DNA from: Candidatus Poribacteria bacterium | GTDB lineage: Bacteria > Poribacteria > WGA-4E > WGA-3G | Assembly: GCA_965215265.1 (NCBI GenBank) | Contig: OZ244048.1 | Span: 2,176,001-2,240,000, forward strand | Direction of reading: 5' to 3' | DNA length: 64,000 nt | Shown here: positions 1 to 31,900 of the stretch, one piece after another | Numbering within the stretch: the first letter of the stretch is position 1 | Layout: the number at the start of each line of letters is the position of its first letter | Made by a program: the position numbers and the translations under genes | Notes under the pieces: model-generated | Database searches by the model: none | What the model was told of the DNA's origin: nothing | What the model saw: the letters and a program-made list of their open reading frames with translations, nothing else

Positions 1-307
1 TGCCATCTAAACTTATCGATAATTCGGAAAAGTCGACAATTTCTCCTGTAAAATAGCGCGTGAGTGCGTCAAACGCCATGCCTAAAACCGGATCCGTCGG
101 AATCGTGAAATACTTAGGCCGAGGGACATCGTCAAAACTAGACTCTATAATACAATCTCCTAAGCGAGCAATCTGTAAAAAGCCTATAGGAGAGAAAAAG
201 TAAAATTGGACGATGTTACGAAAATCTAATGATTCCGTTGAATCCAGACAATCCGCATTCTGAGAGGAATCCTTTCTGAATTGACTTTTTAATTCTTCTT
301 GTTTCAT
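1..307 (-). CDS. ogt: methylated-DNA--protein-cysteine methyltransferase, N-terminal part (runs off the window)
   Basis: Own translation from the ATG at 307: MKQEE...FFSPIGFLQI...ALTRYFTGEIVDFSELSISLDG, matching the SPIG...L..YF.GE...F pattern of the Ogt N-domain. Not in the ORF track. The catalytic PCHR motif lies outside the window. Confidence 0.65.
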   Translation of the reverse strand, partial: MKQEELKSQFRKDSSQNADCLDSTESLDFRNIVQFYFFSPIGFLQIARLGDCIIESSFDDVPRPKYFTIPTDPVLGMAFDALTRYFTGEIVDFSELSISLDG

Positions 308-356
308 TTTTTTTCTTGACCTCCACTACGGAGTAAAGTATGCTATATAGCAAACC

Positions 357-737
357 ATGGCTACATTTAAAACACCAGACCAGCTCTATAGAGAGCTCGG
401 GAAGCTGTTTGAACGCATTGCCACAGAACCGGAAGTCCAAGAATCCCTGAAGTCTTTACGGCTGTGCGTTCGATTTAACTACTCTGAGCCGGACGCGACG
501 ATGACATTGAACGCGAAGGATGGCGAATACTCCATCATCTGCGGTGATTGCGATAACACCCCCGACGTTGAATTAACAATGACCGGCGAGGTCGCTTACC
601 GATTCTGGACCGGCGAACTCAATGTGATAGAAGCAATTACCAAGCGAGATATCGAGGTTATTGGTTCGCTTGGTAAAATCATGCGTCTAACTCCGGTTCT
701 TAAGACTGCTATACGTTATTTTCGTATAGGGCAGTAA
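357..737 (+). CDS. SCP2 sterol/lipid-binding domain protein
   Basis: 126 aa with the SCP2 signature PDVELTM...FWTGELN..AI....I.V.G; preceded by TTGACC-17-TATGCT. Confidence 0.75.
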   Translation: MATFKTPDQLYRELGKLFERIATEPEVQESLKSLRLCVRFNYSEPDATMTLNAKDGEYSIICGDCDNTPDVELTMTGEVAYRFWTGELNVIEAITKRDIEVIGSLGKIMRLTPVLKTAIRYFRIGQ

Positions 738-829
738 CCTCACATCCTCAGGCAATGACACCTGACATTAAAATCTCATTGGCAGTTATACGATTTCACT
801 ATTCTAATGACGAGCCGGGGCAGTGCCAC

Positions 830-858
830 TTGCAATTTTTTAGGTGAAACGTTATAAT
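830..858 (+). promoter_or_regulatory. sigma70-type promoter of the phyH-VOC genes
   Basis: TTGCAA-17 bp-TATAAT upstream of the GGAGG RBS and the ATG at 921. Confidence 0.55.
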
Positions 859-920
859 GATTGTGCCTAGATAAGTTCGCTGTCGATACATCGCTGCTTC
901 AGTTCCATTAGGAGGTTACT

Positions 921-1709
921 ATGGTAGACAAGTTATCCGAAACAGTTGAACCTTACGTTACACAATTGCGTGAAGAAGGTTGGTGCATCTTAGAGAATGT
1001 TATACCTGCCGATGTAGTTGATGAAGTTCGCGAAGAGGTCGAGACCTCAGAGCTGGACTACAATCAATTTACAAAAGAGAACGGCAGATGGACGCGCAAT
1101 GTTGTCTGTTTTGTGCCACGTTTTGCACAATATTTAGCCGATGAACGACTATTAACGGTGATTCGCACATTATTAGGGCCCCAAGTTCGCATCTCACAAA
1201 CGGAATATAAGATTCGACCTCCGCATTATGAATTAGTGCGCGCCTACCACTCTGATTTCCCGTACGACCTGAACCAAAAATGGCACATTCCTCAGCCGTT
1301 CCCTCGTGCTGTTATTGGCATCACTACCCTCTGGATGCTATCCAAATTCACTACAGAGAACGGCGGCACTTGGATTGTTCCCAAAACCCATGTAGACCTC
1401 AGAAATCCACGCGGCAAAGCCGATAACATCGGAGATCGGAACCCTATTCTGGGTGAAATCCAAGCCACCGGTGAAACTGGCAGTGTACTCATCATGGACA
1501 GCCGAATCTGGCATTCCAACGCGGAGAACCCAAGTGATAGCAAACGCACAGCTGTCGTGGTGAGGTATGCACCGTGGTGGTTGAATTTAGAACTGTTCGG
1601 CGTTAATACCGCAACGATCCCCGGCGACATTTTTGACACCTTCCCAGAAAATGTCAAACGACTTTATGAACACCGCGCCGAAAACAGAGAACCCACGCTC
1701 TGGATATAG
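921..1709 (+). CDS. phytanoyl-CoA dioxygenase (PhyH) family Fe/2OG dioxygenase
   Basis: HSD...ENGGTWIVPKTH...G.V...D.RIWH...N.S...R motifs; GGAGG RBS. Confidence 0.85.
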   Translation: MVDKLSETVEPYVTQLREEGWCILENVIPADVVDEVREEVETSELDYNQFTKENGRWTRNVVCFVPRFAQYLADERLLTVIRTLLGPQVRISQTEYKIRPPHYELVRAYHSDFPYDLNQKWHIPQPFPRAVIGITTLWMLSKFTTENGGTWIVPKTHVDLRNPRGKADNIGDRNPILGEIQATGETGSVLIMDSRIWHSNAENPSDSKRTAVVVRYAPWWLNLELFGVNTATIPGDIFDTFPENVKRLYEHRAENREPTLWI

Positions 1710-7010: not shown

Positions 7011-10000
7011 GTGATAGAACTTTTACGCCATACCCAGAATTATCAAAAACTGAGCACTGCCCTCAAACACAGGGAAGAACTTACATGGCTCCGAGGCTTG
7101 CCCAATGCATCCACGGCATATCTCTTAGCAGTGCTCATTGACGACTTTCCTAATAAATCATTCCTAATTGTACTCCCATCACAACAAGAAGCAGAACAAG
7201 TGCACGCGGAAATCCAGACTTATTGGACGTATAGTCTTCCTAATTCTGATGCCATGGATACTAGCACGCAAACACAAAAACCTCTGCCTGCACACCCACA
7301 CATGACACTTTTTCCCGGATGGCAATCACAACTTTTTGATGGCATCCCGCCATCCAAAAATACGGCTGTCCAGCGGATGCAAACGCTGCAAACGTTGCTG
7401 CAAGCACGCGAACGCAGCGTGGTTGTAACGAACGCCCGAACGTTAACTTACAAACTGCCACCCCGTTCAACATTGGCAACCGCTTTCTGCGAACTTCAAC
7501 TCGGTGATGAAGCAGAACCAGACGATGTCATTGAAATGCTCCTCTGCGGCGGTTATCAACAGGTCGAATTGGTAGAGGTCAAAGGCGAATTCGCTTTCCG
7601 CGGGGACATCCTCGATGTCTATCCCTCCACTCTTGATACACCCGTCCGAATCGAATTTTTCGGCGATGAAGTTGAGGCCATCCGCGCCTTTGAACCCATG
7701 TCGCAGCGCTCAACTGAACAACTTGATGCCGTTACACTCCCACCGATGCGCGAAATTCTCGCACGTCACATCTCTCTCGAACACTGGCACTTGCAAACAG
7801 ACCAAATCATCCAAGAATATGCAACGCCGCAATTGATACACCGTATTAATGAACTCACACAACACTTAAAGGAAGCTACTTGCGAGCCGACAATAAGACG
7901 CACACACACAACCGACAACTTTACAGCAGCACCCCCGATGTTCGATTGGATAGAGGCGTTCTTGCCGCTCCTCTATCCCAAAACTGAAGCACTCATCGAC
8001 TATCTCCCCGATGACACTTGTGTTGTACTGATAGAACCACACTGGCAAAAACGTGAAGCAGCCCAAATGCTCGAGCAGATGCACGAACTGTTTCAGAAAA
8101 ATTTGGCAGAATCAAAACTCATGGTGCCACCAGATAAAATGTTCGTTCCATTTGAGGAGCTCCAGACGCAATTAAAGCAATATCCGCTCCTCTGTGCATC
8201 CTTGGCACCCCCACGCGACATCTCAGCCTCAGAAAAGACACAGCTACACTTTGATATGAAACCGTTGGGACTGCCACGAGGCAGCTACCAGATGGTTATC
8301 GACCACATCAAAACCTGGACAGACGAAGGATATCAGGTTTATGTATTCTGTGAAACGCCACAGCAGGCGAAGCGCGTCTCAGAAATTTTAGCCGAACGAG
8401 AAGCCGACTCAGAAATCAGCGAACACGCTATCCACGCTAACCACACGGACTTCACAGCCAGCAATCCTTATCGTCTTAATCGACTTTTCGTCACAGTCGG
8501 AACAATTACGGAAGGCTTCCTTAATGAATCGCTAAACATCGTTGTCATCTCCGAAGAAGAGATATTCGGCAATCGGCATCAACGGCGAATACGGCCGAAA
8601 CGACCCAAGGACGGCACACCGGTTCTCAGCCTAATTGACTTGAAGATAGGAGACCATGTCGTGCATGTCTCGCACGGCATCGCGGTTTATGGAGGCATCC
8701 AGCGCTTGGATTTTAACGGAAAATTACAAGATTTCCTAGTCCTCAAATATAGCAATGACGATGTCCTCTATGTGCCTAATTATCAAGTCGAGCTGGTTCA
8801 AAAATATATCAGCAGCAACGATGAAACTTACAAACCGCGGCTAGACCGACTAGGCGGACCCGCATGGCGCAACCGAAAAAACAGAGTAAAAGCATCAATC
8901 GAAAAAATGGCCGATGAACTCCTCGAACTTTACGCCGCACGCCAAGCCCGAAAAGGTTATAGCTTCCCAGACGAAGTACCCTGGCAGACTGAATTTGAGG
9001 CCCTGTTTCCTTATCAAGAAACCGATGATCAGTTCCAAGCAATTGAAGATGTTAAAGCCGACATGGAGGCAGAACAGCCCATGGACCGGCTCATCTGTGG
9101 CGATGTCGGATACGGTAAAACTGAAGTCGCCTTGCGCGCAGCCTTTAAAGCCGTCATGGCCGAAAGGCAGGTCGCCGTACTCGTTCCAACAACCATTCTC
9201 GCACTCCAGCACTACGACACCTTTGAGAAACGGTTCAAGCCCTTTCCTGTTCACGTCGAAATGTTGAACCGTTTCCGAACGCCAAAGCAGATAAAGCAGG
9301 TCAAAGCAGGACTCGCAGATGGCACGGTCGATATTGTTATCGGAACGCACAGCCTCCTCGCCAAAACCGTCGAATTTAGCAACCTTGGCCTCTTAATTGT
9401 TGACGAAGAACACCGATTCGGCGTGAGACATAAAGAGAAAATTAAGAAATTTAAAGAGACAATTGACGTACTCACGTTGACCGCAACACCAATTCCGCGC
9501 ACTTTGCACATGTCGCTCGTCGGAATCCGAGATTTCAGCGTTATCAACACACCACCCGCCAATCGACTGCCGATTCAAACCTACGTGATGCCGTACAACA
9601 CGGATGTCATCCGAACCGCAATCCTCCAAGAATTAAGTCGCAGCGGTCAGGTCTTCTTTGTACATAATCGCGTCCGGAGCATCCAGAGCATTGCCAAAAG
9701 GTTGGAGCAATTGGTCCCAGAGGCACGCATCGCCGTCGCACATGGACAAATGCCCGAACGTGAACTCGAAACGATTATGCTTGAGTTTGTTCGCCACAAG
9801 CACGACATACTTGTTTGTACCATGATTATTGAATCCGGACTCGATATCTCGAACGTAAACACTATCCTGATTAACCGGGCTGATGCACTCGGGTTAGCCC
9901 AACTCTATCAACTTCGCGGGCGCGTCGGACGCGCCGAGGCACAGGCGTACGGTTATATGTTCTATCCAGAGAACCAAGTAATTACCGAAGGCGCGCAGAA

Positions 10001-10643
10001 AAGACTCCGCGTCATTGAAGAATTTACCGACCTCGGCTCCGGTTTTAAAATCGCACTCCGAGACCTAGAAATCCGTGGAACAGGCAATATCCTCGGCGCA
10101 GAACAGCACGGACACATCGTTACAATCGGCTATGAACTTTACTGCAAACTCCTTGAAGAAGCCGTTCAGAAGTTGAAAGGCGAAACGGTCGAGGAGAATA
10201 TTGAAACGCGCATCAACCTACCTATTGAAGCTTACTTGCCAGACGACTACGTACCAGATAGCCGCCAAAAGGTGGCGGTTTACCGAAAAATTGCCGCCTT
10301 AAAAAACGAAGAAGCCTTACAAGAACTTCGCGCTGAACTAAACGATCGATACGGTGCTATTCCTGAACCCGCTCAGATGCTTCTCGCTGTCGCCAGTCTC
10401 AAGCAGCTTTGTCAAAAACTCAGCATTACCGCAATCGTGGCGGGGAAAGCACAGATAAAAGTCACTTTTGACGAGCACAAACCACGAATTAACATCGAAC
10501 GGCTACTTGAGGACATCCGCAAAGATGATAAACTTCGGCTCCTTCCGCCAGCACAACTTATGATTCGCATGCCGAACGGAACAACCGGAGAGAAAATGCT
10601 TACTGAATTACAACAAACCCTAACACAGTTTGTTAAAACATAG
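7011..10643 (+). CDS. mfd: transcription-repair coupling factor
   Basis: GEFAFRGDILD, CarD/RID region (GDHVVHVSHG), GDVGYGKTEVA, DEEHRFGV, QLRGRVGR and the TRCF C-terminal domain. Confidence 0.97.
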   Translation: MIELLRHTQNYQKLSTALKHREELTWLRGLPNASTAYLLAVLIDDFPNKSFLIVLPSQQEAEQVHAEIQTYWTYSLPNSDAMDTSTQTQKPLPAHPHMTLFPGWQSQLFDGIPPSKNTAVQRMQTLQTLLQARERSVVVTNARTLTYKLPPRSTLATAFCELQLGDEAEPDDVIEMLLCGGYQQVELVEVKGEFAFRGDILDVYPSTLDTPVRIEFFGDEVEAIRAFEPMSQRSTEQLDAVTLPPMREILARHISLEHWHLQTDQIIQEYATPQLIHRINELTQHLKEATCEPTIRRTHTTDNFTAAPPMFDWIEAFLPLLYPKTEALIDYLPDDTCVVLIEPHWQKREAAQMLEQMHELFQKNLAESKLMVPPDKMFVPFEELQTQLKQYPLLCASLAPPRDISASEKTQLHFDMKPLGLPRGSYQMVIDHIKTWTDEGYQVYVFCETPQQAKRVSEILAEREADSEISEHAIHANHTDFTASNPYRLNRLFVTVGTITEGFLNESLNIVVISEEEIFGNRHQRRIRPKRPKDGTPVLSLIDLKIGDHVVHVSHGIAVYGGIQRLDFNGKLQDFLVLKYSNDDVLYVPNYQVELVQKYISSNDETYKPRLDRLGGPAWRNRKNRVKASIEKMADELLELYAARQARKGYSFPDEVPWQTEFEALFPYQETDDQFQAIEDVKADMEAEQPMDRLICGDVGYGKTEVALRAAFKAVMAERQVAVLVPTTILALQHYDTFEKRFKPFPVHVEMLNRFRTPKQIKQVKAGLADGTVDIVIGTHSLLAKTVEFSNLGLLIVDEEHRFGVRHKEKIKKFKETIDVLTLTATPIPRTLHMSLVGIRDFSVINTPPANRLPIQTYVMPYNTDVIRTAILQELSRSGQVFFVHNRVRSIQSIAKRLEQLVPEARIAVAHGQMPERELETIMLEFVRHKHDILVCTMIIESGLDISNVNTILINRADALGLAQLYQLRGRVGRAEAQAYGYMFYPENQVITEGAQKRLRVIEEFTDLGSGFKIALRDLEIRGTGNILGAEQHGHIVTIGYELYCKLLEEAVQKLKGETVEENIETRINLPIEAYLPDDYVPDSRQKVAVYRKIAALKNEEALQELRAELNDRYGAIPEPAQMLLAVASLKQLCQKLSITAIVAGKAQIKVTFDEHKPRINIERLLEDIRKDDKLRLLPPAQLMIRMPNGTTGEKMLTELQQTLTQFVKT

Positions 10644-10839: not shown

Positions 10840-10953
10840 TATGTAGCCGCGAGCTGATGCTCGCGATTCTTAATCGGAGATTCGCAGGAAAAGGTATTGA
10901 CCTAAAGGTTAATTAATACCTTACCTGCGAACTTGAACCACAAAAAAGGAACT

Positions 10954-12000
10954 ATGAATATGAAAAAAACGATTACTATTTTGAGCATCGTCGCCATAAC
11001 TTGCCTGTTGACATGGCGATTTGTTCAGTCCGATAGCCATGTTGGAATTGGGCCGGTGGAAGCCACAGAAGAGCATTCTGCAAACCAGACATCTACAGAC
11101 GATGAGAATCTACAGATTGTGGCTGAATTTAAATGGAACGGCCAACGTCATCAAATTTCTCTCGCAGACTTGAACGCCGCAATAGCAGAACTGCCGGTTT
11201 ACCGCCAGCAAAACTATGAAAACCGGGCGGACAAAGCCGAATACTTAGAAGAACTGATAGAGGAACGCCTCAAAATCCTACGTGCTACTGACGAAGGGTT
11301 TGATAAACTACCAGAACACCTCAAAAAGTTAGATGACTATACCCATCAACTCATGTTGGAAAAACTGACCGAAATTGAAGTAGACCAGAAAATCGTCTAC
11401 ACCGATGACGAACTCATGGCACACTATGAGGAAAACATAAGCGAGTACATTGAAGACGCTAAAGTCCGAGCAACCTGCATCAGCCTCGACGATGAAGACC
11501 TGGCCAACGAAACGTTAGATGCAATTATAGCAGGCAAAGACATCGTAGAAATGGCAAATGAACTCTTTCAGGCAGGCAAATTAGCCAACGGCCCCGGAAC
11601 CAATCGCGATGAACCCGGGAACACATATCTCTTTACAAAGGCAGTCTCTCCACGCTGGGAGGAATTCATCAACGCCACATTCGCCCAAGAAATTGGCGAA
11701 ATCACCGATACCGTCTTTGAGACCGAGGTCAACGAGCAAACATTCTATCTTATTTTCAGAAAAGAGGAACACCACCCCGAACGCCAGATGGAATTCGACG
11801 AGGTTAAAGACGATATCATACGCGACATCGAACGCAACAAGAAGCAGCTGCGCATAAACGAGTGGTTAGAAGAAATTTATGAACGCGGGAAACTGAAGAC
11901 CTACCCTGAGAATATTCCTACTCCCTCAGAACCAGCGGAAGAGGAAAATCAAACTCAAGAGCATCCCTCAGATACCAAACAAGGAGAAAACGAGAATTGA
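10954..12000 (+). CDS. PrsA/PpiC-like periplasmic peptidylprolyl isomerase/chaperone
   Basis: Signal/anchor; SurA-N-like helices; degenerate parvulin domain (KVRATCI...F.NATF....GEI...FDEVK..I). Start chosen at the ATG after the AAGGA RBS. Confidence 0.7.
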   Translation: MNMKKTITILSIVAITCLLTWRFVQSDSHVGIGPVEATEEHSANQTSTDDENLQIVAEFKWNGQRHQISLADLNAAIAELPVYRQQNYENRADKAEYLEELIEERLKILRATDEGFDKLPEHLKKLDDYTHQLMLEKLTEIEVDQKIVYTDDELMAHYEENISEYIEDAKVRATCISLDDEDLANETLDAIIAGKDIVEMANELFQAGKLANGPGTNRDEPGNTYLFTKAVSPRWEEFINATFAQEIGEITDTVFETEVNEQTFYLIFRKEEHHPERQMEFDEVKDDIIRDIERNKKQLRINEWLEEIYERGKLKTYPENIPTPSEPAEEENQTQEHPSDTKQGENEN

Positions 12001-13049
12001 AAACTTTAATCACAACGTTAACACACGCACGTGCCGCCCAGAACAGCCTCGCATATCTGAGCCTATTCGCGATTATTGTGACACTACCCCTATTCTATGC
12101 ATGCGGCGACAAAGCCATCGGAGCAGACGGAACTGTCATTGCTGAATTTGAATGGAACGGGAAGCACAAAATCACACTCGAAGAGATGATGCAGGAAATT
12201 AGTGAGCTCCCTGAATACAAACAACGCAAATATCAGGACAAAGAGGGACTCGAAACCTACATGCTCCTCATGGCAGAGAGCCGGCTCATCCTCAACCTCG
12301 CACGCGATATGCAACTCCAAGAAGATCCCGAAATCCTCAAAAAGGTTCAGGACTATCTTCATGAGCTAATGGTAAAGAAAATTACCACCCAGGAAGTTGA
12401 TGACAAACTCTCTTTGAGTGAAGCGGATTATATCAGCTATTACGAGGCACATAAGCAAGACTACATCCGTCCAGCACAAGTCCGACTCCTATGTATCACC
12501 CTGCTCAACAAGGAGCGCGCTGAGGAAGTCTTCGCGGAAATCAACGCAGGCAAAGACATCGCTGAAGCTGCACAGGAACTCTCCGATAGAGGCGAGCTCG
12601 TCGGACCAGGCGCAAACCCCGCAGCACCCGGCGATACCGACTACATTGGTAGAAGCGCCTTTCCATCAGGCACAGAACCTTTCTTGGATGCAGCATTCTC
12701 CGCTGAAATCGGAACATTCCACGACAAGATAGTTGAAGTTGACGTGCAAGGACAGAAATACTACATGATCTTCCGAAAAGACGAAGCACGCGATGAATAC
12801 CAAAAACCTTTTGAGGAAGAAGATGTACGCAAAAATGTCGTCCGAAAGGCTGAACGCGAAAAACGACAAGCACTCATGAAAGAGTGGATCGCCAGCCTCA
12901 GGGAACGCGCTGAAGTCATCACATACATTGACCGCATCCCTGAAGCACAAAACGAAGAAGCACCTGCCGAAACCGAACCTGAGGCACAACCCGAACAAAC
13001 GCCTGAGGCACAACCCGAACAAACGCCTGAGGACAATCAACCTGAATAA
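11997..13049 (+). CDS. PrsA/PpiC-like peptidylprolyl isomerase/chaperone, lipoprotein (paralog of the upstream gene)
   Basis: Lipobox-like YACG; shares AEF.WNG..ITL and the parvulin-like region; C-terminal 24-bp repeats encoding PEAQPEQT. Confidence 0.7.
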   Translation: MKTLITTLTHARAAQNSLAYLSLFAIIVTLPLFYACGDKAIGADGTVIAEFEWNGKHKITLEEMMQEISELPEYKQRKYQDKEGLETYMLLMAESRLILNLARDMQLQEDPEILKKVQDYLHELMVKKITTQEVDDKLSLSEADYISYYEAHKQDYIRPAQVRLLCITLLNKERAEEVFAEINAGKDIAEAAQELSDRGELVGPGANPAAPGDTDYIGRSAFPSGTEPFLDAAFSAEIGTFHDKIVEVDVQGQKYYMIFRKDEARDEYQKPFEEEDVRKNVVRKAEREKRQALMKEWIASLRERAEVITYIDRIPEAQNEEAPAETEPEAQPEQTPEAQPEQTPEDNQPE

Positions 13050-13056
13050 CCAATTT

Positions 13057-13303
13057 TGATTACCACAGCAGCCTAAATCGGCTCTGACGAGATTTGTATA
13101 GGTATTATGAAAGCAGCAGCCTTTTATAGTACTTCAGGAGACAAAAAGTTGTAAAGTGTCTAAAGTTACTACACAAGACTTTAGACACTTTACAGCCCTT
13201 TAAACTTGAAGGAACCACGTTATGCTATGCCTAATGCGTCTCCGACGAGATTTACACTGTCATTAACAAAGCATAAAGCGTGATGGTACGGAGATATACA
13301 AAA
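13057..13303 (+). repeat. family-I locus: two units separated by a hairpin
   Basis: Units start at 13088 and 13246 (CGAGATTT); hairpin TGTAAAGTGTCTAAAGT/ACTTTAGACACTTTACA at about 13150-13194. Confidence 0.85.
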
Positions 13304-13307
13304 CACC

Positions 13308-14591
13308 ATGAAATGCAAAATCGGGGCTTATCTCTTGCTAACTCTGATGTTTATCAGCACGGGGACAGCACGCACTTTTGACACCATCATCGCCTACGTC
13401 AACGATGATGTCATTACACAACGCGAACTTGATACCTTAGTCAAACAACGCGCCATGGAACTCCAACAGATGTACCGTTTCACTGAACGAGAGGCACTTC
13501 AGGAAGCCGAGCGGCAACGCCCAGAACTCCTTGATAGGCTCATCCGCCAAATGCTCCTCCTTGAAGCAGCACTCACCTTGAAAGTCAACGTGACATCTGT
13601 AGAAGTTGAACAATACATCCAAGACTTTAAAAAGAGATACCAGATTAAGACAGATGAGGAACTTCAAAAACAGTTGAATCGCGAAGGACTCACCCTCATC
13701 GGGTTTCGGGAACAGACAGAACGCAACCTCAAAGCAGAGAAGTTAGTCATGGGCAGAATTATACCACGACTCCAGATTCGCGACAGTGAAGTCCAAAAAT
13801 TTTTTGAAGAGAATCGGGACCAACTCCCAACTAAATCAGATAAGGTCCGATTCCGGCACATCTTTGTCGCTTTCAAACCGACGCAGACGGAACGTGACAC
13901 CGCACTGCATAAAATTCACACCGCACGAAACGACATCGAAAAAGAACCAGCGCAGTTTGAACGCATCGCACGGCAAGAAATCGACGACTCCAACAACTCT
14001 CAAGTCGGCATACTCATAGAAGCTAGCCCCGAAGAGCTCAAAGAGTTCCCCGAAAACTTTCAAAATGCGCTAACCAATCTCAACGCTGGTGAATTTAGTG
14101 AACCCATCCAAGGAAACGAAGGGCTCTATCTCTTCAAAGTAGAAACAAAAACTGACACGCTCATCGCGTTTCGCTATCTCATCGTTCCGATTAAGTTGAC
14201 TGAAGAAGCGAAACTTGAAGCACGGCTGCACGCCGCCAAAATTTTTACAAAATTGGAGGAAGGACAACACTTCAACACCCTCGCCGCTGAACATTCCGAC
14301 GATACGGAAACACGCGAAGACGGCGGCGACCTTGGCGTCCGCTCCCTGATTGAAATCAATCCAAAAACACGCAGAATCGTTGAAGCCCTCGAAGAAGGGA
14401 CTTACAGTCAACCTTTTGAAACCGATTCCGGAATCCACATTTTTAAACTAGATGAACGAAATACACCCGAACTGAGCGAGGCCGAGAAAAAGCAGATTAT
14501 CTCTATACTCCGCCAGCAGCGCTTTCAGGAAGAATGGGATGCATATACCGATAGCCTCCTCGAAAACGCTTACGTCAAAATAAAACCGTAG
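13308..14591 (+). CDS. surA: SurA-like periplasmic chaperone/PPIase
   Basis: DTIIAYVNDDVITQREL SurA N-terminus, two parvulin domains (RFRHIF; LAAEHSDD...GGDLG), AYVKI C-terminus. Confidence 0.85.
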   Translation: MKCKIGAYLLLTLMFISTGTARTFDTIIAYVNDDVITQRELDTLVKQRAMELQQMYRFTEREALQEAERQRPELLDRLIRQMLLLEAALTLKVNVTSVEVEQYIQDFKKRYQIKTDEELQKQLNREGLTLIGFREQTERNLKAEKLVMGRIIPRLQIRDSEVQKFFEENRDQLPTKSDKVRFRHIFVAFKPTQTERDTALHKIHTARNDIEKEPAQFERIARQEIDDSNNSQVGILIEASPEELKEFPENFQNALTNLNAGEFSEPIQGNEGLYLFKVETKTDTLIAFRYLIVPIKLTEEAKLEARLHAAKIFTKLEEGQHFNTLAAEHSDDTETREDGGDLGVRSLIEINPKTRRIVEALEEGTYSQPFETDSGIHIFKLDERNTPELSEAEKKQIISILRQQRFQEEWDAYTDSLLENAYVKIKP

Positions 14592-14680: not shown

Positions 14681-17600
14681 TTGAACTTTCAAGACGCGCC
14701 GGCAAGCGGCGAACGAAAACCTAAATTTTGGGACACTTGCGCAGCTGCCATAATCGCACTACTCGCAATCCCGTACCTCCACTCTCCGGCAGCACCCGCG
14801 CATCCCGCTCTTAACGCACGGCTCATCGCTCAAACACCCCCGCCGGAACAGACAGAGACACCCACTGAGCCCCAAGAAGAAACAGACGAAAAAGAAAATG
14901 CCCCTACATTCAATCCAGAGCAGGAGACACCTGACTCCGGGTTTGTCATCGGCGACGGAGACGAGATGGTGATGCACGAGAATCTCGTACAAATCCATGG
15001 AAACGCTCTCGTCAAATTTGGGGATATCACTTTGCGGGCAGACCACGTCTGGGCCGATTTCACCGAAAACGTCAATTTAATCCGCGCATCCGGGAACGTA
15101 CATCTCATCACCGGCGACGAGGAGACATTCTCTGATGAACTCGTCTTTAACCTCGAAACCAAAAAGGGCATCGCACGAAACGGCTTTACCTACAGCGACC
15201 CCTGGTACTTCGGCGGGAGTGAAATCTTTAAAATTGAAGATAAGACATCTTACGTCCGAAGTGCTAGCTTGACAACCTGTTCCCTCAAATATCCACACTA
15301 CTATTTTAGCGTCTCACGCGTTATCATACGAGTCAACGACGAGCTCATCGCCAAAAATATCATACTCCGCATCGGAGGCTTCCCACTCTTCTATTTTCCA
15401 GCCATCCGACGCGATCTGCAGAAGGGAAAAATCGCTAAAATTATTGTCAAAGTCGGAACCGATAGCTACCAAGGCCCTTATATCAGTATCATTCAACCTG
15501 TCGCACGCAAAAGACGCTACGATGGCGCACTCCTCTACGATAGAAGTGCACGCAGAGGACACGGCTTCGGGCTTGAAACAAAATATCGATTCAATGATAC
15601 ACAATTCCAAGAAATTTATATCCCTATTCCACCCGACCTAACCGCCGCGCAACGCTCAAAATTGGAGGATAAAGCCAAAGAGATACGCGAACGGCTCGAA
15701 GGCAAATACAACCGATATTGGCTAAAGCAAATTTTCCTACCTTATGAAATTACGGATGCTGACTTCAAACGCGCGAAAGAGAACGCTGAAGAACTGCATA
15801 ATCAACTTGTCCAAGAAAACGCAGATTTCGCACAACTCGCACAGCAGCATTCTAGCCACGAAACTCGATACGAAGGGGGCGACTTAGGGTTCATCACATT
15901 CGGAGAACTGATTGAGGACACAGAAAAATCAACGCCTGCCTCTAAAAACACAGATAAAAATACCGAAACACCGCAAACCCAATCCGGATCAGAAGACGCA
16001 GCACAAACAGACGACGATACGCCGCAATCCGATGATAAACCACCACAAACAGACGACGATGCACCGCAATCCGATGATGAACCACCACAAACAGACGACG
16101 ATACGCCGCAATCCGATGATGAACCACCACAAACAGACGACGATACGCCGCAATCCGGATCAGAAGACGCAGTGCAGCCCATTGGGACACCCAAACTCGA
16201 CCCGATTTTAGAAACAGCAGCATTTCAACTAGAGGAAGGCCAAATCAGTCAGGTTTTAAAGACTGAATCCGCTTTTCACATCCTCAAAATCGAACGGGCC
16301 CTTGATGTATACGGAGAACGCGAAATACAGGTCCGACGGATTGATATTAACATTGAACCCAGCGACGAAACACGGCAGAAAATACGCGAAACCGCAAATC
16401 AAATTTATCAACGTGCACACGAAGGCGAACCCTTGGAAAAACTTGCCGAAGAATTCGACGAAGCCGCTTTATCAGAAATCAACCAAGGCAAAGGACTCCC
16501 ACTCAATCAAATGGAGTCCGGATGGCAATATTCTGTCAGAAGGTTAGAGAAGCCCGGCGAAATCATACAACGCCGGCCAGTTTCCGCACCAGAGGGGTTA
16601 TACATCTTCCAATTAATTAAAAAAGAAGAGACTCCCTCCTTTGAACAACTCGCTCAAGAATTTGAATTGGAATGGGAAACCTTCCAACAAGAGGTCATGC
16701 GTTCAACCGAAGAAGAGAAACAGGAAAACGCAGAAAAAAACCAAACAGCCGCAGCTGCCGAACCTCTACAAGCTAAAAGTATAGCACCGCAACAAAAGAA
16801 AAAAACAGAAGAAAAAAACGGAACACCTACACAACTAGACGAGCAGCCGGACGCGGAGAGTGAGAACACAACCCAAGAAGAAGATGAAGAAGATGAAGAA
16901 GATGAAGCAGCAGCAGCAGAGCAGGGTGTCTATCGAAAACACGGATTTCGCGGACAGTGGGAAGATCCCCGCATGGTCGCAGCCGAAGCACGCAGTTTGT
17001 ACACCGGCGAATTCAGTCGTGTCGTAAAAACAAAAAAAGCGATCCGCCTTATTAAGGTCGATCGAAAACGCACTTACCGCGGGGATTTCTACTTCTACGG
17101 CAAAGATGCATACTCCTTCGACAGGCAGAACGCAACTCGTATCGGCAGAACATGGATATCCCGATGGGGACACACGCAAGCTATCTATACACCCTGGGAT
17201 AATCGCCAAGAAGGACGCCGCCCTATCAACTTTACCGGACGCCTCGAATGGCGCGCCCGAAACTACAAAGAAGAACTCCGACTCCCCGGAGAATCCACAC
17301 TCAAATCGTTTGGACTCCTTAACTACGGCTCCGCATTCACCACATGGTCTACTCAAGATGTCGATGAAAACAATAATCTCAAATTCTCAATGGAAACTAT
17401 CGGAGATTTCGCAGGACGACTCGAAATCCGACATATCTATGATTTCACCCAACAAGGCACTACATCTTTACAAAAACTCCCACAACTCTCCTTAAACTTT
17501 TCACGGATGCGGTTTAGCCAACTGCCTCTCTTTCGAACCATTAACTCCGGGTTAGTCTACCTCTCCGAAAAAGCCCAAAGCGACAAACCTTTTCTCTCAC

Positions 17601-18754
17601 TACTCTCTGTACCAACATTAGATAACACCAGCTTCGATCTGGACATGGAATTCGGAAATTTCTTTAGACAAATCTATAAAGGCAAAAACGAGGAAGAGAG
17701 AGATGTCTTCCTGCAGACGCTTGACTTCGGTTTTGACCTGCGCAAACAGGCAACCTTACTCATTACCCCGCTGCGCGAATTGGTAACCAACATCAATCTG
17801 AATACAAACTTTATCTGGCACGACCGGGACCAGGACAAAAACAGGAACATTATCCGCGGCGTTTATAGTTTCAACGGCTCCGCCACAAATACACTCTTCC
17901 GTGTCTACAATATTAGTTTCATCCCACGGGCACGTAAACTACGGCACGAGATGCAATCATCACTCCGGTTTGATTACCAACCCCCTGTTGATCGGAACGA
18001 TAATCTCTATCCCTTCGGCCCCAGCACCTATTTCTACGAACGGAAAAGGATCGTCTATAACTTCAACACGAACATCGAAATTAAGACACAGCGCAGCCAA
18101 TCCCCACATCGTATCTTCCATTTTGACACCCGACTCACTGCCGACTTTACCAAATTCGACCCGCTAAACAGACGCAAATATGAACCGATCGAGAGTGATT
18201 TCACTATCATACCGCTCCCCAATCGCAGCCTGAACATGACCGTCCGACTCACCCACGACCCCAATCCACACCCAGAGGACGGTACCATGTTCAAAGTTGT
18301 CGGAATCCGTTCCAACATCCGATACACACGACAGAAGTGGAATGTCAGCATCGGAAACTCCTTTAGCAAACGGCACACCGCCATTCGAGCATCACGCTCC
18401 ATCACCGCCAATGGCAGATACCGATTTAACGAGAACCTCGATTTCGATTTCAACCTCATCTTTTATCCGATCGACAGGGACTTCTACTCACAACGCATTA
18501 GTATCAATCGGAACTTACACGATTGGAACTTGCGCGTCTCTTGGAGCCGCATCGGCATTAAACGCGGGCCGCCACCCCATAACAACGTCCGACAAGATTT
18601 CACTTTTCAGATTAGCTTAATTCCAGAACCAGCAGTCTCAATGGGCATCGGCTACGATGCCACTACCGAAACATGGGGACTCCGTACCTTACCCGCCGGC
18701 GCACCTTACAACGCTTTCGGGGTAGGAAATGCACTCGGACGTTCTTACTTCTAA
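14681..18754 (+). CDS. lptD: LPS-assembly protein LptD with inserted parvulin (PPIase) domains
   Basis: OstA-like N-domain (GNA.V...ITLRAD...A.GNV...FNLETKKG...LTTC....PHY...IGGFPLFYFP), barrel strands ending RNLHDW...DFTFQISL, and internal FAQLAQQHS...GGDLG...AAFQLEEGQISQV. Confidence 0.85.
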   Translation: MNFQDAPASGERKPKFWDTCAAAIIALLAIPYLHSPAAPAHPALNARLIAQTPPPEQTETPTEPQEETDEKENAPTFNPEQETPDSGFVIGDGDEMVMHENLVQIHGNALVKFGDITLRADHVWADFTENVNLIRASGNVHLITGDEETFSDELVFNLETKKGIARNGFTYSDPWYFGGSEIFKIEDKTSYVRSASLTTCSLKYPHYYFSVSRVIIRVNDELIAKNIILRIGGFPLFYFPAIRRDLQKGKIAKIIVKVGTDSYQGPYISIIQPVARKRRYDGALLYDRSARRGHGFGLETKYRFNDTQFQEIYIPIPPDLTAAQRSKLEDKAKEIRERLEGKYNRYWLKQIFLPYEITDADFKRAKENAEELHNQLVQENADFAQLAQQHSSHETRYEGGDLGFITFGELIEDTEKSTPASKNTDKNTETPQTQSGSEDAAQTDDDTPQSDDKPPQTDDDAPQSDDEPPQTDDDTPQSDDEPPQTDDDTPQSGSEDAVQPIGTPKLDPILETAAFQLEEGQISQVLKTESAFHILKIERALDVYGEREIQVRRIDINIEPSDETRQKIRETANQIYQRAHEGEPLEKLAEEFDEAALSEINQGKGLPLNQMESGWQYSVRRLEKPGEIIQRRPVSAPEGLYIFQLIKKEETPSFEQLAQEFELEWETFQQEVMRSTEEEKQENAEKNQTAAAAEPLQAKSIAPQQKKKTEEKNGTPTQLDEQPDAESENTTQEEDEEDEEDEAAAAEQGVYRKHGFRGQWEDPRMVAAEARSLYTGEFSRVVKTKKAIRLIKVDRKRTYRGDFYFYGKDAYSFDRQNATRIGRTWISRWGHTQAIYTPWDNRQEGRRPINFTGRLEWRARNYKEELRLPGESTLKSFGLLNYGSAFTTWSTQDVDENNNLKFSMETIGDFAGRLEIRHIYDFTQQGTTSLQKLPQLSLNFSRMRFSQLPLFRTINSGLVYLSEKAQSDKPFLSLLSVPTLDNTSFDLDMEFGNFFRQIYKGKNEEERDVFLQTLDFGFDLRKQATLLITPLRELVTNINLNTNFIWHDRDQDKNRNIIRGVYSFNGSATNTLFRVYNISFIPRARKLRHEMQSSLRFDYQPPVDRNDNLYPFGPSTYFYERKRIVYNFNTNIEIKTQRSQSPHRIFHFDTRLTADFTKFDPLNRRKYEPIESDFTIIPLPNRSLNMTVRLTHDPNPHPEDGTMFKVVGIRSNIRYTRQKWNVSIGNSFSKRHTAIRASRSITANGRYRFNENLDFDFNLIFYPIDRDFYSQRISINRNLHDWNLRVSWSRIGIKRGPPPHNNVRQDFTFQISLIPEPAVSMGIGYDATTETWGLRTLPAGAPYNAFGVGNALGRSYF
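15979..16172 (+). repeat. 42-bp in-frame tandem repeat (QTDDDTPQSDDEPP) inside lptD
   Basis: About 3.5 units of CAAACAGACGACGATACGCCGCAATCCGATGATGAACCACCA, bracketed by two CAATCCGGATCAGAAGACGCAG copies. Confidence 0.9.
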
Positions 18755-19562: not shown

Positions 19563-20288
19563 TTAGTCTGCTTCAACATCCACAAGTAGCTCACGTCCAT
19601 TCAACGGTTGCACCGGACGACTATTGCCCTGCATAATCGTTTCAAATGCCAAAATTTGCGATTCAGACATTTCAATAGGTGTCGTTATTATGAACCATTT
19701 GACCCCTTCCGAACACGGCGGAGTCGTTAACGAACCCTCGTAACGATAGGTATGCCTCGTGCTTGGCAACAGTTCGTCGGCATTGACGGTAACACTCTCA
19801 ATGCTGCGCATCTCGCCCGATACGGATGGCAAATTGCTCCAGATTGAAGCAAACGTCGGATTATCACTTCCACGTTCTATTAACACACCAACCACAGCCA
19901 ACGTTCCATCCTCACTTTGGTGAACGTAGTGCATCTCCATGTCAAACGCTCTACCGGCTACTGTATGTTCACCGGGGGCGTGGAAGTGGAATTGTTGCAA
20001 TTCATACCTTGTGCCATCAACCTCAATCCAACTCCCTTCATTGTATGCAACTTGAATAGTATGTCCAGTATTGCGAATGTTCAAAACCGTTGGCTGGTAT
20101 TTGAAAGTCATCGCTGGAAGTTCAACAGCTATCGGGTTCACCAAATCAATCGGCGATTGGTGTATCCCCACAGCACAAATGGCATACTCCGGATTTAATT
20201 GCCCCCAGATGTTTGGACCATTTTCTTCTGTATAACCCCACTCTACTGTGTGGGATTCACTAACTAATTCTTCGTGTATGATATCCAT
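19563..20288 (-). CDS. alpha-class carbonic anhydrase
   Basis: WGY...GP..W, QSPIDL, QFHFH..GEH, EMHYVH, YEGSLTTPPCSEGV.W, N.RPVQPLNGR. Confidence 0.93.
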   Translation of the reverse strand: MDIIHEELVSESHTVEWGYTEENGPNIWGQLNPEYAICAVGIHQSPIDLVNPIAVELPAMTFKYQPTVLNIRNTGHTIQVAYNEGSWIEVDGTRYELQQFHFHAPGEHTVAGRAFDMEMHYVHQSEDGTLAVVGVLIERGSDNPTFASIWSNLPSVSGEMRSIESVTVNADELLPSTRHTYRYEGSLTTPPCSEGVKWFIITTPIEMSESQILAFETIMQGNSRPVQPLNGRELLVDVEAD

Positions 20289-27636: not shown

Positions 27637-28872
27637 TTGTCGACAGTTTACAATAGATTGATGACATTCATATTGAATTATGAAAAATGCGGCACATTTT
27701 TCAGAGCTGCTTCACTTCTCATCGCTATGGTTTCGATATGTCTTGTTGTGCCTGAGGCGACTGAGGCACGTCCGGAATTTGCAGCCGAATTAGAAAAAGA
27801 ATGTAACTTTTGCCATATTGACCCGGCCGGCGGGGGTCCGCGAAACCGTATCGGAGAAATTTTTGAGGATAATTATTTTGAATTCCCTGAAGATTTTGAC
27901 ATGGAAGCCGTAATGGAGGAAGCAAAAGAAATTGTCAAACAACTCACAACCTCTCTTGATTTGCAAACCGCTTTTATCAAGAGCATGCATGTGGACGAAG
28001 CCGAAAACACGGTTGCCGGATGTAATTCGTGTCACTCTTCAATTGATAGATTTCTCCTGATGCAAGCAGAGGTGACGTTCAATGCACAGGCCTCCGAACA
28101 CGTACGGCTAACCCTTTCTAATAACGTTGGAACGACACTCAATGCATTTGCCACTGTAGATGCTATTCCAAAGCATCTCTACGTCAAGGTAGGACAATTC
28201 CGCTTACCTTTCGGTATTAAGCAAAAGGACCACAATATCCTTGTCCGCGAGGGTTATGGGCTCGGTTCTAACAAACGCAATGTCGGCGTAGAGCTTGGGG
28301 GTAGCCTTGGAAGAGTTTTTTACAATGCTGCCTTTTTTAATGCGAAGAATGCAACAGCCTCCGGCACACTAGGAACCGTTGGCGGGCAAATCGGTCCGAT
28401 TCGAGCAGGTGTTTCTGGCAGAGTTGACCGGAACACTGAGGAATGGGAACGCCTCATCGGCTTATTTATGACAACCTCCTATGCAGGCCTGAGCTTAGAA
28501 GGGGAGTTCAATTTGGGGAATACTGGTGTACTCAATGACAGTTCAGTCATATCACCTTACATCGCTGCTTTGACACCGGATGCTGTTGATTCAAAAGGCT
28601 ACTATGTCGGGGCAAAATACCGTATCCATCCCCAATTGAGTGTTGCCTGCCGCTACGGGCTGTTTGATCCGGATAGAACTATCAAGGGCGACGCAGCCAG
28701 ACGTGTAACGCTCAGTGGGCATTACAATTTTATGGAAAACGGGGCAATTTCACTCTTCTATTGGTCAAACTTGGCAAATCCTGACCGGGGTACGTCACAC
28801 CGTAATACCGGCATGTCCCGGCAGCTGCAAGGCACAGATCAGGTGATTGTAATGTCACGATTCTGGTTTTAA
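27637..28872 (+). CDS. outer-membrane beta-barrel (porin-like) protein with two CxxCH heme motifs
   Basis: Signal peptide, CNFCH..PAGGGPRN..G, CNSCH, VKVGQFRLPFG porin motif, terminal RFWF. Confidence 0.65.
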   Translation: MSTVYNRLMTFILNYEKCGTFFRAASLLIAMVSICLVVPEATEARPEFAAELEKECNFCHIDPAGGGPRNRIGEIFEDNYFEFPEDFDMEAVMEEAKEIVKQLTTSLDLQTAFIKSMHVDEAENTVAGCNSCHSSIDRFLLMQAEVTFNAQASEHVRLTLSNNVGTTLNAFATVDAIPKHLYVKVGQFRLPFGIKQKDHNILVREGYGLGSNKRNVGVELGGSLGRVFYNAAFFNAKNATASGTLGTVGGQIGPIRAGVSGRVDRNTEEWERLIGLFMTTSYAGLSLEGEFNLGNTGVLNDSSVISPYIAALTPDAVDSKGYYVGAKYRIHPQLSVACRYGLFDPDRTIKGDAARRVTLSGHYNFMENGAISLFYWSNLANPDRGTSHRNTGMSRQLQGTDQVIVMSRFWF

Positions 28873-28910
28873 CAATTGAGATTAACTTGAGTCAATACGG
28901 AGGATTAAAA

Positions 28911-31900
28911 GTGATACCTCAATTCTCAAAACGTTTTCTCATAGGGATTATCGGTTTCCTCGTGCTCATCATTATTGTAGGTATTTTCTACATTGTGCGC
29001 ACCCAGGTGGGTGCGAGAATCAACTACAGTGTCAAAACGTTCACTCCTCAAGATGAGGTCCCGCAATGGGTAGATTTCTCAATTACCTTGTCGGAACCTG
29101 TGATTGATAATTTTCAAATGGGTTCTGAAGTGCCGCAGGACGCTATCCAATTCACCCCTGCCATTGACGGGAAAGCGCAGTGGATAGCCCTCGATAGAGT
29201 TGATTTCTTTTTAGAGAGTGCGTTGGCCCCTTCGACTCAGTACACGGTGGAGCTGACCTCCAAATTGAGTCCATCTAGTGTTTTTATGTTGACGGGGCGG
29301 CGCACTTTTAAATTTGCGACGCAACGTTTTGCTGTGGTTGAAACCGCTATTGAATTCAAGTATGACAAGGCGCGGCAGAATGCTAAAGCGGTCGGCAGCA
29401 TTTCTTTCAACTATCCGATAAATATAGCCGATTTAAAGGCACATCTTTCTGTACAACATGACGATGGGACGGAAATCCCGTATCAAATCCTGCCTGGTGC
29501 CTCAACGGAAACGCGTATGGTGAAACTGGAAACCGTCCAAATCCCGCGCGAACTTGAAGATCAGTTAATTAAGATAAAGATAGAAAAAGGGTTCAAATGT
29601 ATTGGGGCGCAGCTCGGGCTCAAAGCTGCCAGCATTACGCCGATAATCCTGAACGGTAGTGGTACACTGGGTGTTACGTACTGTAATGTCACAGAGAGGG
29701 CGGGTAACCCGTATTTCGCGCTCCGATTTAGCACGCCGATCACTGCAGCAACGCTAGAGCCGTTTATCAGTATCCAACCACCAGTGGAACATCAAGTGAG
29801 CTATAAGTACGGAAATGTATTGATTCATGGTGCCTTCAAACGAAGGGCAACGTATACACTGACTATCGCCGCTGGTTTGACAGCACACGACGGTTCTGTC
29901 CTCAAAAAACCGTATAGCACTCGTCTAACGATTCCTGATGTGCCTGCGCAGGTCCGCTTCCATGGCAACGGGTTCTTTTTGGCTAGAAAAGGGGCGTTGA
30001 ACCTCGGGGTTGCCACGATTAATGTCAAACGTCTGAACATTCAGATTGAGAAAGTATTCGCGAACAATCTGATATATATATCCAAATTAGCTCGGTGGGG
30101 CGGGAGTTCACGCAGCTTGGGGAAACGCCTACATACTGAAGTCGTGGACGTGGATTTCCGATTGAATGAAGAGGTCACAACCCCGATTCCGTTAAACTTA
30201 AAGGATGAGCACGTGGGTATCTTCAAAGTGAAAGCGTCGGATACAGAGCATCGTTGGGTAAGCGAGCATCAATGGGTGCTCCTGACTGATTTGGGTATTA
30301 TCGCCAAACGTTCTGGCAATACGATGTCCGTGTGGGTAAAATCGCTTGCAACCAGCAAATCTGTGCCGGGAGCGCGTGTCAAACTCATCAGTGATAATAA
30401 CCAGACCTTACGTAGCGGTAGGACGAATTGGGCAGGTTATCTTCGTTTTACTGACATGGATGCTAATATCGAAGGGTTCACCCCGTTTATGCTTACCGTT
30501 ACCAAAGCGGATGATTTGGCGTTTATTCAATTTGACCGGCATGGGCTTGCTACAACAGACTTCGATATCGCAGGTTCTGACTATTTAGAAAAAGGGTATG
30601 AGGCATTTCTGTATACCGGCTGCGGCGTGTATCGCCCTGGGGAGAGGGTTCATCTCGCTGGTATTGTCCGTGGTAAGAATCAAGTAACGCCTGCCCCACT
30701 CCCAGCAAGGTTAGAAATTCTTACCCCTGACGGAAGAATCATGCGTGAATTGCGCTTGCAGACATCTGCGAGTGGGACTTGTGAAGTAGAGTTTTCGCTT
30801 CCGGCGTATGCCCTCACCGGTGGTTATCGTGCCAAACTGCGTGTCGCTGGCAAGGTCATTGGACGCTGTGAATTTCAGGTTGAAGAATTTATGCCGGACC
30901 GGATGAAAGTATCAGTCGCTGTCGCCAAGCGTGCCTATTTTCTCGGTGACACTGTGGGAATTGAGGTTGCCGCTGTGAATCTCATAGGTCCCCCAGCTGC
31001 GAAAAAAAAGGTGCAGGTTTCATGTGAATTGGAAGCGGTTCCTTTTACAGTAGAAAATAGAATTCGGACTGAAGGTGCCAAGGTGGCCGGTCGGACTTGG
31101 CACGGATTCACATTTGAAGATGAACAGCAAGCGTTTGAGAAGCAGCGGATTGAATTAGGTGCAGCAACAACAGATGCTGCTGGCAAGGCTTCATATCAGT
31201 GGAATCTGCCTGATACGCTCAAAGCGCCCTCCCTGCTGCACGGTGTTATCACTGCAACAGTGCAGGAAGCCGGGGGCAGAGCTGTGACGGCTGTGCATCG
31301 CGTAGTGATTCATCCTTATTCTCACTATGTTGGACTTCGTCGGACTACCGCGGGTGAGGTGGAATGGAATAAACCTCTTGAGCTTGATGTGGTTGCGGTT
31401 GATGCTACAGGTTCAATTGCGGCTGGGCGTGCGTTAACTTTAACGCTTCACAAAGTACATTGGAACACGTTGCTCCGCCAGAACGCCCGAGGGGAGTATG
31501 CCTATCTCTCTGAACCTGAGACAATAGAGATTTCTAAACGAATTTTAACCTCAGCAGCAACAGTTACCAAGGTGCAGCTAACCCCTCCGGCGTATGGAGC
31601 GTACCGGGTCCGGGTTGAAGATAGCGCATCCGGTGCACGTGCTGACATCGGTTTTGAAGTGGGAGGGTGGGGAGATATTCCGGTTTCAATGGCACATCCA
31701 ACCCGGCTGGACCTGAGACTTGATAAAACGACTTATCAACCTGGGGAGACTGCAAAATTACACATTAAGGCCCCCTTTCCAGGGACCCTCCTCCTGACTG
31801 TAGAACGCGAAAAGGTGCTCAGTTACAGAACTGTGACTTTGCGCGAAAATAGCGGGACATTCAATGTTCCTGTCCTTCATCGTTATATTCCGAATGTTTA

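Follow-up and report, generated by a model that had tools for sequence, protein, structure and literature searches.

Gene and domain architecture at the locus

The stretch of DNA considered here (64,000 nucleotides, hereafter the window) lies within a single 4.83-Mb contig of a sponge-associated Poribacteria genome and encodes, at positions 14681..18754, a homologue of the lipopolysaccharide (LPS) insertase LptD that carries a long parvulin insert in its outer-membrane barrel. All coordinates are those of the window and refer to the forward (+) strand unless stated otherwise. The protein has 1357 amino acids (aa), with a TTG start as listed and the stop codon included in the gene coordinates. 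A sequence-only reading of the same DNA had quoted 15 motifs from a 1357-aa LptD, all of which are present in the order given within the open reading frame (ORF) 14681-18754 (+).

The protein begins with a signal-peptide-like region (14681..14815), recognised from sequence and hydropathy and having a hydrophobic core at aa 19-33, which is followed by a Pro/Glu/Thr-rich linker reaching about aa 85. A periplasmic beta-jellyroll (the LptD_N-like “beta-taco”; about aa 86-245, 14936..15415), assigned from profile matches, holds a conserved TTC motif and precedes barrel strands beta1-beta4 (aa 252-305, 15434..15595), as assigned by DSSP in an AlphaFold2 (AF2) model. The segment GHGFGLETKYRFN (aa 293-305, nucleotides (nt) 15557-15595) stands directly before the insert and TYRGDFYFYGKD (aa 798-809, nt 17072-17107) directly after it. 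The insert itself comprises aa 306-797 (nt 15596-17071); of the earlier proposed span, 15596..17070, the start thus stands and the end falls one base short. The remainder of the barrel, from beta5 to the C-terminus (aa 798-1357, 17072..18751), contributes 22-24 further strands by DSSP and ends in ...GRSYF. Within it, a helix in the beta10-beta11 turn (aa 949-965, 17525..17575) is conserved in all mapped proteins, at a model confidence of 46-67, and the tripeptide HDW (aa 1280-1282, 18518..18526) occupies the turn between DSSP strands 24 and 25.

Upstream of lptD lie three genes for peptidylprolyl isomerases (PPIases; 10933..14591), as the sequence-only reading had noted, and Pfam resolves them into two Rotamase_2 proteins (10933-12000 and 11997-13049) and a SurA-like protein (13308-14591) with SurA_N and two Rotamase stretches. 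The gene order is therefore mfd (7011-10643), the two Rotamase_2 genes, the SurA-like gene and the parvulin-bearing lptD. The PPIase trio, with its order kept, is found upstream of lptD in all 15 related loci compared, the surA-like gene directly adjoining; in E. coli, lptD and surA are neighbours. As an observation on these genes, the C-termini of the two Rotamase_2 proteins (window 11950-12000 and 12950-13049) are acidic, Pro/Glu/Gln-rich low-complexity tails, with repeats such as PEAQPEQTPE, and are similar in style to the loops within the LptD insert.

Identity of the barrel protein

Profile and predicted-fold comparisons identify the gene as the Poribacteria orthologue of LptD, the outer-membrane LPS insertase. 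A scan of the 4.83-Mb genome with Pfam LptD_2 returned a single match, ORF 14681-18754 (24 bits; cut-off 22.5). At the level of the protein, the Pfam scan that had been proposed for checking the fusion gave a clear result for Rotamase, a borderline one for LptD_2 (22.8 bits on aa 980-1110 with the C-terminal part alone) and none above cut-off for LptD_N (13.6 bits, cut-off 20.4), while the classical LptD family (PF04453) found no match anywhere in the genome. In NCBIfam, aa 112-309 weakly resemble the CT351 family of outer-membrane barrels. The only other LptD_N match above cut-off in the genome is in a 346-aa frame elsewhere, which is LptA-like.

The family profile (45 sequences) aligns with seven canonical LptD_2 proteins at an hhalign probability of 100 (E 1.6e-48, 646 columns), and the alignment runs from the jellyroll to the last strands, with the insert opposite a gap in the template. 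The profile of the N-terminal part (aa 81-305) has as its best match the solved LptD chain 7omm_A (E 7.1e-5, chain 101-260), followed by LptA chains. An AF2 model of aa 200-1357, built from a 42-sequence alignment (model numbering + 199 gives protein numbering), has a mean predicted local distance difference test (pLDDT) of 72.1, mostly 75-95 in the barrel blocks, and DSSP assigns it 26 strands and two low-confidence ones; the barrel of solved LptD has 26. Its top Foldseek matches are the LptD chains of LptDE complexes, from E 8.2e-11, with TonB-dependent transporters next, near 1e-4. VIA-align superposes it on 9rpt_A with Z 15.8 and a root-mean-square deviation (rmsd) of 4.7 Å over 462 residues (model 51..1118 against chain 225..765), and on LptD chains overall with Z 13-15.8 over 440-502 residues; porin and VDAC rows also reach a Z of about 13, but with some 250 residues at rmsd >10 Å. 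The claim that the two flanks form one LptD is borne out by sequence profile and by predicted fold. The genome also encodes LpxC, two LptF/G proteins and an LptE homologue (discussed below). As a lead only, the ESM Atlas places a homologue (P0065) nearest to its own two Rotamase clusters (0.98), and LptD clusters of several phyla follow at 0.82.

Three nested parvulins

The insert very probably consists of three parvulin folds, of which the first (A) is split by the other two (B and C), giving the order A1-B-C-A2. The first part of parvulin A (strand 1 and helix 1; aa 306-344, 15596..15712), whose strand prolongs barrel strand beta4, is delineated by profile comparison, the AF2 model and a fold match. 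Parvulin B (aa 345-545, 15713..16315) carries the best-conserved parvulin signature (GGDLG, FHILK) and is assigned by Pfam Rotamase, by alignments to PrsA and SurA P1 and by a fold match. An acidic disordered loop within it (aa 411-499, 15911..16177) has pLDDT <50, is composed of 25% D, 15% T and 13% P, and has an occupancy of mostly 0.12 or less among 41 homologues; a 42-bp tandem repeat (3.7 copies, 95% matches, window 16002-16157) encodes this PQTDDDTPQSDDEP-type acidic stretch. Parvulin C (aa 546-652, 16316..16636) is a degenerate parvulin, recognised by hhalign, by alignment to SurA P2 and by a fold match. The second part of parvulin A (aa 653-797, 16637..17071) then supplies a long helix, a second acidic loop, strand 2, helix 4 and strands 3-4, of which the final one passes into beta5; its disordered loop (aa 669-747, 16685..16921) is evident from the AF2 model, homologue occupancy and composition.

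Several lines of comparison agree on this anatomy. Pfam Rotamase matches the whole protein in three stretches (87.3 bits, cut-off 21.7) and the insert alone with E 1.2e-25, and Rotamase_3 scores 67.6 bits. When the pieces of A (306-344, 650-668, 748-797) are joined, they align with the parvulin-2 profile of the neighbouring SurA family over 97 columns (probability 97.0, E 8.7e-11), the corresponding hhalign probabilities being 99.3 for B and 98.5 for C; between the domains themselves, the probabilities are 98.3 (A-B), 97.6 (A-C) and 98.1 (B-C). An AF2 model of the insert by itself (mean pLDDT 78, ordered parts >90, two disordered loops) shows strand 1 and helix 1 of A, all of B, all of C and then the rest of A, with the secondary-structure elements of each domain in parvulin order. 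Pin1-type PPIase domains superpose across model residues 1..490, that is, on the split A (Z 12.5-13.0, rmsd 2.4 Å, 95-97 residues), the PPIase tandem of 8hm4_A superposes on B-C (Z 16.4, 3.6 Å, 203 residues), and the SurA P1-peptide complex 2pv1_A also matches the insert (Z 13.5, 2.0 Å, 98 residues). The proposal that parvulin A is divided around B and C is therefore upheld by profile comparison, predicted secondary structure and the Pin1 superposition alike. Domain hidden Markov models (HMMs) recover the A1-B-C-A2 order in 14/14 family proteins mapped, and the insert ranges from 312 to 510 aa across the 45 sequences, the minimum corresponding to three bare domains.

Among solved structures, the family profile finds its best match in E. 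coli SurA (E 2.5e-16), in one stretch (profile 276-555 against SurA 88-366) that pairs B with P1 and C with P2 in the printed alignment, while parvulin C searched alone against solved structures gave no relevant match. A Pfam search of the insert with SurA_N likewise returned no match, the SurA core domain being confined to the separate upstream gene.

The alignment with SurA also locates the two histidines which we take to mark the parvulin active site. In the first strand of P1, E. coli SurA has SHILI and the family has Gln at the aligned position in B (kqlFl; Gln350, 34/45), while in the last strand (FHILKV in SurA) the histidine is kept (fhilkv; His533, 36/45). For P2 and C, the first-strand RHILL of SurA corresponds to Arg (rridi; Arg553, 36/45) and the last-strand WHLIEL to Tyr (lyilkL; Tyr641, 34/45), and the second histidine position of parvulin A is Arg789 in 32/45. 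Since B keeps one of the two SurA-aligned histidines and C neither, a binding or scaffold role appears likelier than catalysis.

Placement of the insert and a second insertion site

The AF2 model places four DSSP strands before the insert (aa 255-261, 265-276, 280-289 and 293-305; model E56-62, E66-77, E81-90 and E94-116). Strand 4 runs unbroken to aa 315, its far end serving as strand 1 of parvulin A (model E94-116), and the last strand of parvulin A, from aa 787, continues as strand 5 to aa 811 (model E588-612), with pLDDT of 87-95 at both joints. Parvulin A is thereby predicted to sit on the rim of the barrel like a pedestal. In alignments with solved LptD, model residues 97-98 on the strand-4 side correspond to LptD 272 and model residues 597-601 on the strand-5 side to LptD 280-285, and these anchors assign the insert to the beta4-beta5 turn. 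In Shigella and E. coli LptD, this turn comprises a few residues only, as the sequence-only reading had supposed for the equivalent E. coli position. By the LptD topology given in PMC12644819, the turn would face the periplasm, because it follows an even number of strands after a periplasmic N-terminal domain.

A further parvulin of about 111 aa is present in 5/14 proteins mapped, after the position equivalent to aa 971 (nt ~17591) and just past the conserved helix, that is, in the turn after DSSP strand 10 (beta10-beta11). Its carriers are deep-branching: L051 and L067 (families f7 and f8), P0133, P0145 and P0169. The second insert occupies aa ~775-916 of L051:299-4234:- and aa ~740-878 of L067:1-3786:-, and Pfam Rotamase scores above its cut-off there in both L051 (68.7 bits, profile 16-96 of 97) and L067 (55.6 bits, 25-97 of 97). 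The domain starts at helix 2, continues through strand 4 and closes with a piece resembling strand 1 and helix 1, an order suggestive of circular permutation. In the window protein, no such second insert is present. Parvulins thus occupy the beta4-beta5 turn in all, and the beta10-beta11 turn in the deep-branching families.

Distribution, conservation and origin

To judge from the genomes searched, the parvulin module in LptD is a phylum-wide Poribacteria design. The search for the same fusion in related genomes, proposed with the original observation, found the fused frame uninterrupted in 41/41 relatives and matched in 121/121 Poribacteria genomes across the phylum (E <= 1e-10), many of them on single contigs. 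In the most distant families, matches to the N-terminal part, the parvulins and the barrel occur in 8/8 genomes, in seven as one open frame of 1120-1319 aa; in the eighth, G043, the gene is split over two contigs. Further, in 4/4 public sequencing runs (4 studies), contigs pass through both junctions with no difference there. One of these covers the full 2101 nt examined and has one 42-bp unit fewer (skipping 16063-16106), while three short-read assemblies break only at the internal tandem repeat. An assembly chimera, named at the outset as a possible refutation, is therefore ruled out by the 41/41 and 121/121 frames together with the junction-crossing contigs.

When the barrel part (aa 798-1357) was compared by phmmer with 1.84 billion representatives, only 31 matches came back, in a search that is blind to independent fusions in unrelated LptD lineages. 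Thirteen of these were scanned with Pfam: the six closer ones carry Rotamase and the seven distant ones, which are the canonical LptD_2 proteins of the profile comparison above, are plain LptD_2, LptD or LptD_N proteins without it. Two of the six Rotamase-bearing clusters carry an organism name, in both cases Candidatus Poribacteria. In databases, the proteins are named “peptidylprolyl isomerase” or “hypothetical protein” (5 named among the 120 matches listed), and owing to such labels LptD looks absent from Poribacteria annotations. A search of the main texts of the literature returned no paper on an LptD-parvulin fusion and none joining LptD with Poribacteria. A much shorter family member stands in a Candidatus Poribacteria record (P0149, 856 aa, and P0170, 865 aa); it has A1-B-C-A2 intact and only ~230 aa after the insert, and may reflect truncation or splitting of the gene, or else a shorter variant.

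Across the sequences compared, module and barrel are conserved to about the same degree, and the acidic loops are variable: mean identity to the 41 homologues is 0.58 for A, 0.58 for B, 0.55 for C and 0.62 from strand 5 to the end, as against 0.27 and 0.20 for the two loops. In a tree of 53 domain sequences, a single clade unites the sequences of A, and likewise those of D, of SurA-P1 and of SurA-P2, and the deep-branching members of A, of B and of C stand apart from the rest of their domain. As A, B and C each track the deep split of the phylum, all three domains predate the sampled radiation. In this tree, C falls with Poribacteria SurA P1, and A, B and D with SurA P2, at weak support (88/80), which conflicts with the HMM pairing of B with P1 and C with P2; hence, no origin is drawn for the individual domains. 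A recent copy of surA as the source of the insert was also considered and found unsupported, BLASTP of the insert against the neighbouring SurA being weak and local (best E 9e-5).

Proposed role of the module and alternative explanations

LptD is essential, hard to fold and an antibiotic target. Its assembly in E. coli relies on SurA, on the rearrangement of disulfides, on LptE and on two proteins described recently, LptM and LptY. Denoncin and colleagues reportedly described, in 2010, the action of SurA in E. coli LptD assembly. Taking the locus as a whole, the explanation which accounts best for the observations, and which we would put at a little short of an even chance, is that of an LptD orthologue with a spliced-in parvulin arm that is a putative holdase acting in cis. 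The narrower mechanistic statement, that the module is a tethered SurA-type assembly aid (a cis-chaperone), is offered tentatively and with slightly more reserve. Parvulin A holds the SurA-like B-C tandem behind its first helix, and, according to this proposal, the module would serve as a binding arm instead of an enzyme. As a SurA-type holdase in cis, it might keep the very long LptD chain competent for assembly; alternatively, it might dock the chain at the machinery that assembles beta-barrels (BAM) while the barrel folds around LptE. Afterwards, the module could remain as a periplasmic scaffold beside the beta-taco.

A number of observations speak against this explanation and have to be set beside it. 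With respect to identity, Pfam LptD_2 scores 21.5 bits on the whole protein, just under the cut-off of 22.5, the profile of the C-terminal part finds no LptD by sequence among solved structures, and the predicted template modelling score (pTM) of the AF2 model is only 0.58. With respect to function, B may retain a residual PPIase activity, its second histidine being kept in 36/45; the rigid pedestal would fit a permanent structural part equally well; and with a free SurA homologue and two PPIases encoded next door, a built-in chaperone is not obviously needed.

The most serious alternative, although we consider it unlikely, is a permanent periplasmic buttress which would hold the taco to the barrel in place of a disulfide tether or LptY-type stabilisers, with no chaperone function at all. 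Its appeal stems from E. coli, where, according to PMC12644819, two disulfides (Cys31-Cys724 and Cys173-Cys725) fasten the taco to the beta24-beta25 turn, and the lipoprotein LptY binds and stabilises the taco. E. coli-type interdomain disulfides were not found in the Poribacteria protein, and this feature may not define the LptD family. The mature protein has one cysteine, Cys200 of the TTC motif (Cys there in 38/45), in 36/45 family members no more than one Cys follows residue 60, and HDW replaces the HCW found in 7/7 canonical LptD_2 relatives, the column being Asp in 37/45 family members and Cys in 3/45. In addition, the model predicts that strands 4 and 5 extend rigidly into parvulin A, near the taco-barrel junction in sequence. 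Nevertheless, three domains with long acidic loops exceed what a brace would need, and if the 3/45 that keep the Cys are the deep-branching members, which have the module and an extra parvulin, the module would be no simple replacement of the disulfide. On balance, the tethered assembly aid is favoured only slightly over such a brace. A trans-acting role is rather improbable, in which the module would be an outer-membrane-anchored, SurA-like receptor for other unfolded outer-membrane proteins, or would dock free SurA or BAM, near the site of LPS insertion. The resemblance of B-C to SurA P1-P2 and to the SurA-like PPIase 8hm4, the match to SurA P1 with bound peptide (2pv1_A, Z 13.5) and the conserved cluster with three PPIase genes would all suit such a hub; against this, LptD is usually of low abundance, a poor fit for a general chaperone, and the insert lacks the SurA N/C core domain in Pfam.

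It is very improbable that one of the parvulins stands in for an absent LptE as the plug of the barrel lumen. This explanation drew on the first Pfam LptE (PF04390) search of the genome, which gave nothing significant (best E 0.445), and was dropped once LptE homologues turned up: PF04390 scores above cut-off in 29/61 Poribacteria genomes that also carry the fused LptD, and the present genome has an LptE homologue (G000:C1:239241-239756 (+); locus L072:1501-2016) with 70% identity to the LptE ORF of a relative (E 4.1e-85) and a score of 23.0 bits against the Pfam cut-off of 23. Least credible of all is an artefact, be it a chimeric assembly of lptD and a PPIase gene or a barrel of some other family. 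It could appeal to the missing PF04453 match, to the borderline LptD_2 score and to an unrelated 4116-nt contig of run X2, which shares just 37 nt (15597-15633) and then runs on unlike; yet the frame is the same in every relative and Poribacteria genome compared, contigs of all four runs cross the junctions, and the hhalign probability of 100 and the best full-barrel fold matches point to LptD.

Comparison with known systems helps to delimit what is distinctive in this LptD. Like the LptD of solved LptDE complexes (E. coli, Shigella, Yersinia, Klebsiella, Pseudomonas, Neisseria; 9rpt, 4q35, 4rhb, 5ixm, 7omm), the protein combines an N-terminal jellyroll with a very large C-terminal barrel and is present in single copy; unlike these, it has ~490 aa in the beta4-beta5 turn, an Asp at the barrel-side disulfide Cys, and a barrel that has diverged beyond any match by sequence to solved LptD or PF04453. 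With SurA (E. coli 1m5y) and the 8hm3/8hm4 PPIase, it shares two tandem parvulins (B-C), although here the tandem is held by a third parvulin of a membrane barrel, without the SurA N/C core domain, and the histidines of P1 and P2 are replaced by Gln/His in B and Arg/Tyr in C. It may resemble, if the brace were correct, the LptY-type additions on the periplasmic side that stabilise the taco or gate, but those are separate lipoproteins of unrelated folds (lipocalin-like in LptY), whereas the addition here is covalent and made of parvulins. PpiD and PrsA likewise use a parvulin as part of a chaperone, and their folds match (PpiD 8zht_A, Z 10.9; PrsA 4wo7_B, Z 12.2), yet in these proteins a helix or a lipid provides the anchor in the inner or cytoplasmic membrane, and the parvulin lies within a helical chaperone domain, not in an outer-membrane barrel. 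The parvulin domain of PpiD is not known to be active.

A broader proposal, which we regard as speculative and would not expect to hold in full, is that Poribacteria have rebuilt the way in which the LPS translocon is assembled and held. The disulfide would have been mostly lost, parvulins captured at least twice at two inward turns, and the module would have become an integral working part which positions the taco and couples SurA-type client handling to LPS export. If true, the module would be a natural covalent version of the chaperone and stabiliser contacts that separate proteins make in E. coli. Apart from this, a SurA-like tandem hard-wired into LptD amounts to a natural experiment that reveals a site on the barrel rim able to accommodate such a module, and the 312-aa insert of the shortest homologue offers a compact construct with which to probe the LptD targets of a SurA-type arm.

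Other features of the neighbourhood

Just downstream of lptD, on the opposite strand, lies a gene for an alpha (eukaryotic-type) carbonic anhydrase (window 19563-20288 (-); Pfam Carb_anhydrase, E 7e-46). Further along, a weak Porin_4-like ORF (27637-28872 (+); E 5.7e-4, under the cut-off) is followed by an ORF of 1868 aa (28887-34493 (+)).

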